Of a stretch of DNA of 40,453 nt, positions 30,028-32,027 are shown one piece after another. The notes under the pieces are model-generated. The model searched no databases. It saw only the letters and a program-made list of their open reading frames with translations, and had not been told where the DNA came from. This stretch comes from a virus (taxonomy: Duplodnaviria > Caudoviricetes). Made by a program: the position numbers and the translations under genes. The stretch lies in IMG/VR virus record IMGVR_UViG_3300017700_000500, positions 1-40,453 of that record. The stretch is one strand, 5' to 3'. The first letter of the stretch is position 1. Each line of letters begins with the position of its first letter.

Positions 30028-30257
30028 TGCGTCCTCCAGCACCGAATCCCATCGCCCTCAACGGAGGTTGTGAACCGTTTTCCGCTGTATGCGCCTTGTT
30101 TTGAGCAATAGCTCTGACCGGTAATTGGTGTCATGCCCGCGTAAAAAACCGACTCGCCCACACCAAGGCGCTGGAGTGACAGGCGGAATTCGGTATGTTT
30201 TTCGGCTCGGTGGCCGTGCGCGGGCAAGGGCCTTGCGCTGGTGATTTCTAGGTTCAT
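30024..30257 (-). CDS. Small putative DNA-binding protein, paralog of 34830-35042
   Basis: LGVGESVF...KRF....EG..IRCWR. Confidence 0.7.
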   Translation of the reverse strand: MNLEITSARPLPAHGHRAEKHTEFRLSLQRLGVGESVFYAGMTPITGQSYCSKQGAYSGKRFTTSVEGDGIRCWRTQ

Positions 30258-31078
30258 GCGGATGCTCCTTGTTTTGGCGCCCTTGCGGCGAGTTGATCGA
30301 GGTTGAAGCCGGGCAGCCGCGGGGCTCGCAATACGCGCTCCCTGTAGGCTGAAAACTGCTCCTTAAGGCAATCCCACGGACCCAGCCCTTTTTCGCAACC
30401 CTGCTTTTCAATCGCGGCGCGGGATTCGAGTTCGTCAGCGCTGGCATGGTCGGCAGGAGGCGCGGAACCGTTGGCAACCCGCCCCCGCAACTTGGCCCAG
30501 TCTTCGCGAATGGCTTCCATGAAGGCGTCGTCCCACTTGACGTATTCGTACCCCTTGGCGTTGGCTTTGCGCACAAATGCTTCAAGGTGTTTTTCAAGAT
30601 CGCGGAATCCCTCTTTGGCCGCCCAGACGCGAACGCGTTCAGAAATTCCGAAGTCGTCAGGAATACCCGTCTTCCGTCCCTTTGAATTTTTCGATGTGGG
30701 GGCCTCTGCCTCTTTCTCTCTCTTTGCCTCTGTCTCTCCCTCTGTCTCTGGTACAGCAAGTTGCTGGCAGTCTGCTGGCACGCCGCTAGCGTTCTGCACC
30801 ACAGAGAAAAAACCCTTATCAATCAGCGGCTTGAGTCCAGCGGCTATGTCTTTGATGTTTGTGCGCAGTCGGAAGGCCAGTTCTTCGTGTGCGCCATCGA
30901 AGGACCCGTCTTTGCTCTCGCTTGCAAGCAGCCAGAGCATCGGTGCTAGCGCTCTGCTAGCGAGTGGGAGCGACTGATACGCGCGGTCATCCAGCAGCTT
31001 TTTGTGCAGCTTGATCCACGGCGGCGCCCGGTCTTTGTAGTGCTGGAACTCGGCCCAGTTTTTGGGGGTGAGGATCAC
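30254..31078 (-). CDS. Replication initiator (lambda O-like)
   Basis: KNWAEFQHYKDR.PPWIKLH N-terminus; ETEGETE linker; GTGA-coupled. Confidence 0.8.
   Translation of the reverse strand: MILTPKNWAEFQHYKDRAPPWIKLHKKLLDDRAYQSLPLASRALAPMLWLLASESKDGSFDGAHEELAFRLRTNIKDIAAGLKPLIDKGFFSVVQNASGVPADCQQLAVPETEGETEAKREKEAEAPTSKNSKGRKTGIPDDFGISERVRVWAAKEGFRDLEKHLEAFVRKANAKGYEYVKWDDAFMEAIREDWAKLRGRVANGSAPPADHASADELESRAAIEKQGCEKGLGPWDCLKEQFSAYRERVLRAPRLPGFNLDQLAARAPKQGASA
30708..30797. other. Candidate replication origin inside the initiator gene
   Basis: TGCTGGCA x2 plus CGCTAGCG next to a purine/pyrimidine-skewed (TC)n tract. Confidence 0.45.
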
Positions 31079-31803
31079 GCTACAGGCCCTCCAAGCATTC
31101 GCCATGCTGCTGCTGCCACTCTTGGAACTTGTCCGTTTCCAAGGGCGTTAAGCTGCTCCATGCGAGCGGCCACCCCATCAGCCAAGATACCCACTCCGGG
31201 TTTAGTGGGCCATTCAGCTCTCGCTCCGTCACCATCTTCCGCAGCTTCGCCCTTGAGTGCGAGCCACCCCATTTGCACAGGGCTGAGCCACCGCTCTTGC
31301 CTACAGTTGTGGGAGTTGGCCAGTATCCAGATACGTTCTCTAACGTGGGGCGCTCCAACATGTCCAGCGCCCAGCACTCCCCATCGCGCATCAAACCCCA
31401 TCGCGGCCAGGTCTCCGAGAACAACTCCCAATCCCCGTGAAGTAAGGACTGCGCTGTTTTCCACGAAGACGTGGCTTGGTCGTACTTCGCCAATGATCCG
31501 ACCCATTTGCCGCCACAGTCCTGAGCGGGCTCCGTTGATCCCAGCTCCTTTGCCTGCTCCGGAAATGTCCTGACAGGGAAAGCCGCCAGAAATGACATCA
31601 ACACGGCCAACCCACGGCTTTCCGTCAAAAGTACACACGTCAGACCAAATCGGGAATGGTTCGAGAAATCCATCGTTTTGTCTTTGTGCCAAAACTTGTG
31701 CGGCGTATCCATCACGTTCAACTGCGCAGACGGTTCGCCATCCAAGCAGCTTGCCGCCGAGTATTCCGCCACCAGCGCCCGCGAAAAGAGCCAGCTCATT
31801 CAC
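31075..31803 (-). CDS. C5-cytosine DNA methyltransferase, alpha chain (motifs I-VIII and X)
   Basis: LFAGAGG, GGFPCQD, VENS, RERIWI, LGNGQVP; GTG start. Confidence 0.9.
   Translation of the reverse strand: MNELALFAGAGGGILGGKLLGWRTVCAVERDGYAAQVLAQRQNDGFLEPFPIWSDVCTFDGKPWVGRVDVISGGFPCQDISGAGKGAGINGARSGLWRQMGRIIGEVRPSHVFVENSAVLTSRGLGVVLGDLAAMGFDARWGVLGAGHVGAPHVRERIWILANSHNCRQERWLSPVQMGWLALKGEAAEDGDGARAEWPTKPGVGILADGVAARMEQLNALGNGQVPRVAAAAWRMLGGPVA
31080..31799 (-). CDS. Overprinted C5-MTase beta chain (TRD-like region plus motif IX)
   Basis: 239-aa open alternative frame with WPTPT and LNPEWVSWLMGWP. Confidence 0.75.
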   Translation of the reverse strand: MSWLFSRALVAEYSAASCLDGEPSAQLNVMDTPHKFWHKDKTMDFSNHSRFGLTCVLLTESRGLAVLMSFLAAFPVRTFPEQAKELGSTEPAQDCGGKWVGSLAKYDQATSSWKTAQSLLHGDWELFSETWPRWGLMRDGECWALDMLERPTLENVSGYWPTPTTVGKSGGSALCKWGGSHSRAKLRKMVTERELNGPLNPEWVSWLMGWPLAWSSLTPLETDKFQEWQQQHGECLEGL

Positions 31804-32027
31804 GCAACCCCGCCCTCTTCCGCGCGGCCTGCAAGCGTGTACGCCTTCACTTTCTTGCCACCGGCCAAATGGACCCACTTGTCCTGAATCGGCATGCCAA
31901 GGCGCCTGAATCCTCCGCAGCGCTGCGAAAGTGAAAAGCACTGCGCCTTCTCCAGCGCATCAATAGGCGTCACCCACTGGGCTTTTAGTAGCTCCAGGAG
32001 CTTGTCTTGCATGAGTACGGCGCTCAT
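31800..32027 (-). CDS. Small winged-HTH-like protein
   Basis: LLELLK..WVTPIDAL...LSQRC...R..G..I...W. Confidence 0.65.
   Translation of the reverse strand: MSAVLMQDKLLELLKAQWVTPIDALEKAQCFSLSQRCGGFRRLGMPIQDKWVHLAGGKKVKAYTLAGRAEEGGVA

Follow-up and report, generated by a model that had tools for sequence, protein, structure and literature searches.

The window analysed here is the whole of the IMG/VR virus record IMGVR_UViG_3300017700_000500 (positions 1-40453; 40,453 nt), a complete phage record with 123-nt direct terminal repeats and 58% G+C. The phage is considered temperate because its genome contains an integrase, CI/Cro-like repressors, RecT/YqaJ, NinB, and a SU10-type portal and capsid. 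In the replication/nin region, flanked by a 75-aa gene and a replication protein gene, two frames of the same strand stay open over the same ~720 nt, with starts 4 nt and ends 5 nt apart (Table 1), as the original prediction from the sequence had described. The junction that was claimed to hold the alpha GTG, the TGA of the upstream gene, and the beta ATG is present as GTGAATGA. At the other end, the GTG of the replication gene overlaps the alpha TGA, and an ATG at 31105 provides an alternative start. No cognate restriction endonuclease was found beside the methyltransferase, whose neighbours are the 75-aa gene of unknown function and the replication protein; the proposed orphan status thus stands, and the layout is not that of a Type II restriction-modification system.

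Table 1. Features of the overlapping methyltransferase locus and its neighbours (positions in the window).
Feature	Position	Strand	Remarks
Upstream 75-aa gene	31800..32027	(-)	Stop (TGA) within the junction; PHROG 4973, unknown function, E 3.3e-5
G-rich Shine-Dalgarno-like stretch	31808..31817	(-)	Likely common to both starts; use inferred
Double start GTGAATGA	31796..31803	(-)	Alpha GTG 31803-31801, upstream-gene TGA 31802-31800, beta ATG 31799-31797
Alpha chain	31075..31803	(-)	GTG start, 242 aa; motifs I-VIII and X
Beta chain	31080..31799	(-)	ATG start, 239 aa, +1 frame; N-terminal arm, predicted recognition module, motif IX
Alpha motif IV, catalytic Pro-Cys	31567..31587	(-)	Invariant or nearly so in 43 aligned alphas
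Beta 104-140, over alpha motifs VI-VII	31380..31490	(-)	Strongly selected, several sites 0.94-1.00; likely docking element
Beta 160-197, single WPTP module of type A	31209..31322	(-)	Predicted target-recognition cassette; overlaps the unconserved alpha linker
Motif IX, beta 199-214	31158..31205	(-)	Profile matches; identity 0.75 vs 0.29 over codons 197-240
Alpha motif X	31123..31143	(-)	LGNGQVP
Downstream replication protein	30254..31078	(-)	PHROG 26426 replication protein, E 3.2e-30

Three listed contig pieces of run X1 equal positions 30200-31798 without a mismatch, so that the junction falls just beyond their end. A freshwater metagenome was the best-matching run and is possibly the source sample itself, as may be X1. 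The RNA runs contained only 0.05-0.07 of the words and thus gave no sign of expression, and a promoter scan found no promoter. The genome strongly avoids CCWGG and 6-base palindromes (e.g., CGCGCG, CCGCGG, and CAGCTG); word avoidance as a guide to the target site of the methyltransferase was dropped, as the depletion of CCWGG and many 6-base palindromes is general and points to nothing specific.

The alpha chain matches Pfam PF00145 (E 2.4e-27, residues 4-166), and motifs I (FAGAGG), IV (GGFPCQD), VI (ENS), VIII (RERIWI), and X (LGNGQVP) were all present as originally quoted, as were the motifs quoted for beta. Its AF2 model (mean pLDDT 76) is confident except for residues 169-209 (pLDDT <50), with M.HhaI as the best fold match (10mh; Z 17.0, rmsd 3.3, 188 aligned), and as modelled it is the large domain of a C5 methyltransferase with a disordered gap at the place of the small domain. 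Residues 163-197 are unconserved and disordered. With the C5 methyltransferase traits all found in this chain (motifs I, IV with its Pro-Cys, VI, VIII, and X, and the large-domain fold), alpha is predicted to be the catalytic domain of a DNA cytosine-5 methyltransferase. The alpha polypeptide is without a recognition domain and motif IX, and both of these lie in the +1 frame.

Relatives of the locus were gathered with alpha as the query (the best 80 of at least 566 viral matches and 80 of 594 from bacterial genomes) and were therefore not chosen for beta. Under synonymous resampling of alpha codons 3-163, 4.6 stops were expected in the +1 frame of this phage and none was seen (P about 0.003), and 38 relatives (the alpha-selected loci dereplicated at 85% nucleotide identity) held 2 such stops versus 206 expected when sequences were treated as independent. 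The beta frame was stop-free in 36 of these 38 relatives, where 0.3 would be expected, and the +2 control frame was not depleted (298 stops vs 262 expected). Stop codons are thus depleted in the homologs as the original prediction would have it, in the +1 frame only, and the resampling rejects an open beta frame by chance from codon use or GC content. The frame was open through motif VIII in 76 of the 78 parsed loci from bacterial genomes, with the two unparsed loci open on inspection. Among the best 80 viral loci, three had a stop inside beta (L011, L049, and L051), five had alpha broken before motif X, and two were cut by the contig end. Overall, beta was broken in 5/160 loci (3/80 viral, 2/80 genome). 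One of these loci (L049:2149-3463) carries tandem methyltransferase copies, of which the first has an open beta frame and the second a broken one.

Beta itself matches PHROG 1008 (E 1.6e-17) and has 5457 database relatives of similar length, and every named one of the 120 listed is called "hypothetical". No match was found in Pfam, NCBIfam, or PDB sequences; the Atlas matches were unnamed viral clusters with low recognition value, and beta alone gave a poor model (pLDDT 54, pTM 0.24).

Selection on beta was evaluated by pair identity at alpha four-fold sites, since each alpha third position falls on the second position of a beta codon. The comparison covered 94 dereplicated intact loci (both frames had to be intact, and 160 of 181 loci passed this filter). 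The observed and expected identities were 0.46/0.29 (codons 1-30), 0.49/0.27 (31-60), 0.37/0.28 (61-100), 0.58/0.29 (101-140), 0.39/0.27 (141-163), and 0.75/0.29 (197-240). The first null for beta conservation ignored shared ancestry, and a per-site test with saturated internal regions was preferred. Most sites in 61-100 and 141-163 were at the null, which indicates that silent sites are near saturation and that shared ancestry by itself does not explain the excess elsewhere. Constraint at alpha-silent sites is seen under beta 101-140 and 197-240 and, to a moderate degree, under 1-60, where 5' mRNA effects may account for part of it. Beta W113, L120, P132, and G135, as well as motif IX, are fixed through silent alpha sites, and some of the invariant beta glycines follow simply from alpha Trp codons and provide no evidence for selection on beta. 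The constraint is split between the frames, with alpha dominating codons 1-165, beta dominating ~196-215, and both free over 166-195. Judged from the sequences of this phage and its relatives, the locus is a real, selected, full-length dual-coding one.

Further evidence on the N-terminal part of beta came from the 21 of the 94 loci that lack the usual junction: in 11 of these, picked by eye, motif I is preceded by 9-13 additional codons. In these 11, the beta N-terminal peptide has relocated to the new start, over unconstrained alpha, and the old copy has decayed; the relocated peptide scores above the background maximum (73 loci) in 9 of the 11. A beta start resembling M-x-W-L/I-F/Y occurs in distant clades too. 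The peptide kept at relocated starts and the excess four-fold-site identity in codons 1-60 agree with the claim that both frames are under selection, N-terminal beta included. They also count, together with the similar start in distant clades, against the alternative that the enzyme has two chains but that beta ~1-100 is a mere stop-free leader sharing the alpha ribosome-binding site, with no structural role. Such a leader would fit the near-neutral beta 61-100 (13 of 21 sites at the null level) and the relatives of Che9d type and from Bacteroides and Methanomethylovorans, where early +1-frame stops mean that beta must start internally. It would also fit three unrelated loci (L011, L049, and L179, only 64-70% identical), all with a stop after beta codon 87 and two of them with an ATG directly following, a pattern that suggests a tolerated split of beta. 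Weighed against the excess conservation in codons 1-60 and an N-terminal peptide retained where alpha imposes no constraint, we regard the leader as unlikely and take full-length beta as a selected chain.

Codons 166-195 are variable in both frames, and the beta interval consists of modules that open with a W/L-P-T-P-like word, a start that we take to resemble the "TL" motif of recognition domains. Of 214 betas (120 of them the best matches to the beta of this phage, with its module type over-represented), 200 could be parsed, and 0, 1, 2, 3, 4, and 5 modules were counted in 8, 80, 64, 34, 12, and 2 of them, respectively, with a median module length of 37. Two to five modules were thus present in 112 of the 200, and this phage has one. 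Seventeen module types with at least four members each cover 258 of the 368 modules, in many orders, and type A is the last module in 68 of 68 cases (alone in 30, otherwise after other types). The variable, specificity-like region that had been placed in beta therefore appears as modules varying in number, type, and order across relatives. On a backbone tree (quick mode, poorly resolved), the architectures need 51 changes vs 54.9 when shuffled, which hints faintly at a shuffling of modules.

Profiles built from the module start and from beta 196-222 matched the interval between motifs VIII and X of the single-chain enzymes PFR2 gp47, xhp1, and Philonius gp55 (motif IX profile E 2e-6, 1e-5, and 7e-8, respectively, in a one-sequence database), and neither matched any of three alpha chains. 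The assignment of motif IX to beta is thus borne out, as its profile matches ahead of motif X in the three single-chain relatives and in none of the three alphas. According to the accessible part of one paper, the interval between VIII and X of C5 methyltransferases is the small domain, with the recognition region and motif IX (PMC3404938). As the beta module and motif IX profiles match this small-domain interval, beta is most likely the small domain of the enzyme, and with the xPTP module and motif IX sitting between VIII and X in single-chain relatives, DNA recognition likely resides in beta.

Along the mRNA, the motifs follow one another as in a normal single-chain enzyme, as would also be expected if two ribosomal frameshifts (from alpha I-VIII to the beta module and IX, then to alpha X) yielded a single polypeptide and no separate beta. 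We consider this extremely unlikely, as such frameshifting has no need for stop-free or selected beta codons 1-160, for a fixed beta ATG, or for an open alpha linker of very different lengths, and as M.EcoHK31I, in the available part of its description, works from separate genes. Another reading grants that beta is real but gives it a different role (e.g., that of a regulator), with alpha as a low-specificity or inactive methyltransferase. That beta has no named family or fold would suit this reading, as would the single-chain actinophage relatives that own modules, IX, and X and still keep a +1-frame ORF without IX; with the strongest beta selection on motif IX, which is missing from alpha, and the catalytic motifs of alpha invariant, it is very unlikely.

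The double start is itself conserved: TGAATGA occurs at the junction in 60 of the 78 bacterial-genome loci, and alpha codon 2, when Asn, is AAT in 43/43 cases vs 41/148 for other alpha Asn codons, which indicates that the beta ATG is preserved through a silent alpha site. Ahead of it, the frequency of G is 0.49-0.73 at -9..-5 of the alpha start (73 of the 94 relatives, those with the double start). Upstream coupling varies. The suggestion that both chains couple to one upstream stop fits the junction of this phage and is not general, since the longest upstream ORF ends at the TGA, with its stop at +1, in 14/53 representatives and overlaps the beta ATG in 11/53; the 75-aa upstream gene is no conserved neighbour of the locus among relatives. 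The alignments therefore point to a putative G-rich ribosome-binding site ahead of the double start as the conserved translation feature, rather than coupling to the upstream stop. A coupling to the replication initiator had been proposed as well, and of the 102 related loci only 2 have a homolog of that gene nearby, both times upstream, so its coupling here is incidental and a conserved one was rejected.

The depletion of +1-frame stops, the selection on beta, and the module and motif IX profiles matching the VIII-to-X interval together support the proposed two-chain reading, and we think it probable that the locus encodes two chains of one orphan phage C5 methyltransferase, alpha being catalytic and beta carrying the recognition module and motif IX. 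Mechanistically, ribosomes would load at one G-rich site and initiate at the alpha or the beta codon, 4 nt from each other, yielding both chains together. The N-terminal arm of beta over motifs I-VIII would then probably dock onto alpha, as selection and the deletion data on M.EcoHK31I beta would suggest; the WPTP module would read the target, and alpha would flip and methylate the cytosine. By analogy with known phage orphan methyltransferases, methylation might protect the temperate phage DNA from host restriction. Modules would be exchanged in beta over codons 166-195, where alpha presumably carries a filler loop.

In M.EcoHK31I, the beta start lies well inside alpha. As described in the accessible parts of two papers, this E. 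coli enzyme (YGGCCR; Lee, Kam and Shaw 1995) has beta wholly within alpha in another frame and the TRD placed in alpha (PMC2836561, PMC3404938); both chains are required, also when from separate genes, and N-terminal deletions of beta weaken the association (PMC2836561). Compared by these descriptions, the phage locus is similar in having two chains on one DNA stretch in different frames, with I-VIII and X in alpha and IX in a beta that is encoded entirely within alpha and under selection, and the two chains likely assemble as in M.EcoHK31I. It differs in that beta starts 4 nt after alpha, from a double start, and spans the whole gene, in that no restriction nuclease is adjacent, and in that recognition-like modules lie in beta while the matching alpha segment is filler, whereas the TRD of M.EcoHK31I as published is in alpha, which counts against the reading proposed here. 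M.AquI (CYCGRG), in the part of its description available, consists of two subunits, the small one with the distal variable region, IX, and X (PMC3404938). Beta here likewise carries the variable region and motif IX, but motif X is in alpha and the frames fully overlap. Multispecific C5 methyltransferases of temperate Bacillus phages are described in the accessible text as arraying several recognition domains in one polypeptide (PMC12707154). This locus is also a phage orphan, and relatives of its beta array up to five shuffled modules, but in a hidden frame rather than in a single polypeptide, and with one module in this phage. The nearest annotated parallel is Paenibacillus phage Bloom gp56/gp57 (MH454077), a catalytic and a nested +1-frame chain that both carry a cytosine methyltransferase annotation; gp57 contains three modules plus motif IX and, unlike beta here, starts internally, about 200 nt inside alpha. 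In their accessible parts, PMC2884959, PMC6070908, and PMC5056774 list methylases and do not discuss the frames, two P. larvae phage papers among them listing such genes with no discussion of the nesting, and PMC8788219 does not mention methyltransferases. Searches of open-access text yielded no paper on the fully overlapped phage family, and subscription papers, REBASE, and supplements could hold more.

Layouts among the relatives range from a single chain through an AquI-like split and an internal beta start to the full overlap of this phage. The AquI-like split is found in Mycobacteriophage Medusa (gp78/gp77) and in Wildflower, which break after VIII and have modules, IX, and X in the second frame; Che9d, Bloom, and two plasmid-library records have an alpha with X and a beta starting internally. 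We infer a reciprocal overprinting, in which a beta arm came to lie over motifs I-VIII and alpha filler over the module and IX. In the single-chain actinophage methyltransferases (L225:1241-2287, L226:1124-2371, and L227:1232-2884), modules, IX, and X all lie in the alpha frame, and yet a +1-frame ORF persists that has the beta middle motif and more modules but lacks motif IX; this ORF may add cassettes in trans. A more far-reaching version, to which we would give slightly less than an even chance, is that beta is a modular specificity subunit in the +1 frame, with a docking arm of de novo origin over the catalytic motifs, exchangeable cassettes of 30-45 residues, one ribosome-binding site setting the chain ratio, and single-chain relatives adding cassettes in trans via the +1 frame. 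If this modular reading is true, C5 specificities exist in thousands of phages as a shuffled library that has mostly escaped annotation, and the textbook view that the TRD of M.EcoHK31I lies in alpha needs revisiting. If the cassettes are portable, they would be a source of new, splittable 5mC specificities.

Whole-gene overlaps on the same strand with both frames selected are, to our knowledge, thought to be rare in bacteria and tailed phages, and here a full overlap recurs across a large family (the 5457 relatives of beta). The family offers a deep natural data set on how a domain can overprint a conserved catalytic core, one in which the intermediate layouts survive. As anticipated, gene callers drop one chain: only alpha is kept in Salmonella phage S9-5 and Che9d, and only beta, annotated as "hypothetical", in Ralstonia phage Gerry. 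With annotation keeping one chain in the records checked, specificity determinants of anti-restriction enzymes are missed.

Several relatives depart from these layouts or their annotation in other ways. In Salmonella phage S9-5 (L112:1907-2500), the cytosine methylase is directly preceded by an adenine methylase gene whose stop is the TGA of the double start. The xhp1 record has two short CDS annotated though one 415-aa frame is open. L197:3001-4300 and L080:965-2100 each have a third-frame ORF between motifs IX and X; the one in L197 looks HNH-like by eye, and in that locus motif X is then read in the beta frame and a second IX-like segment comes after the insert. A distant clade (L133-L138) combines a GTGAATG double start of its own with long module arrays that switch frame internally, which may reflect error, decay, or phase variation. 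In Burkholderia phage vB_E253 (L228:1206-3065), the annotated beta frame continues past motif IX and is named "chromosome partitioning protein".
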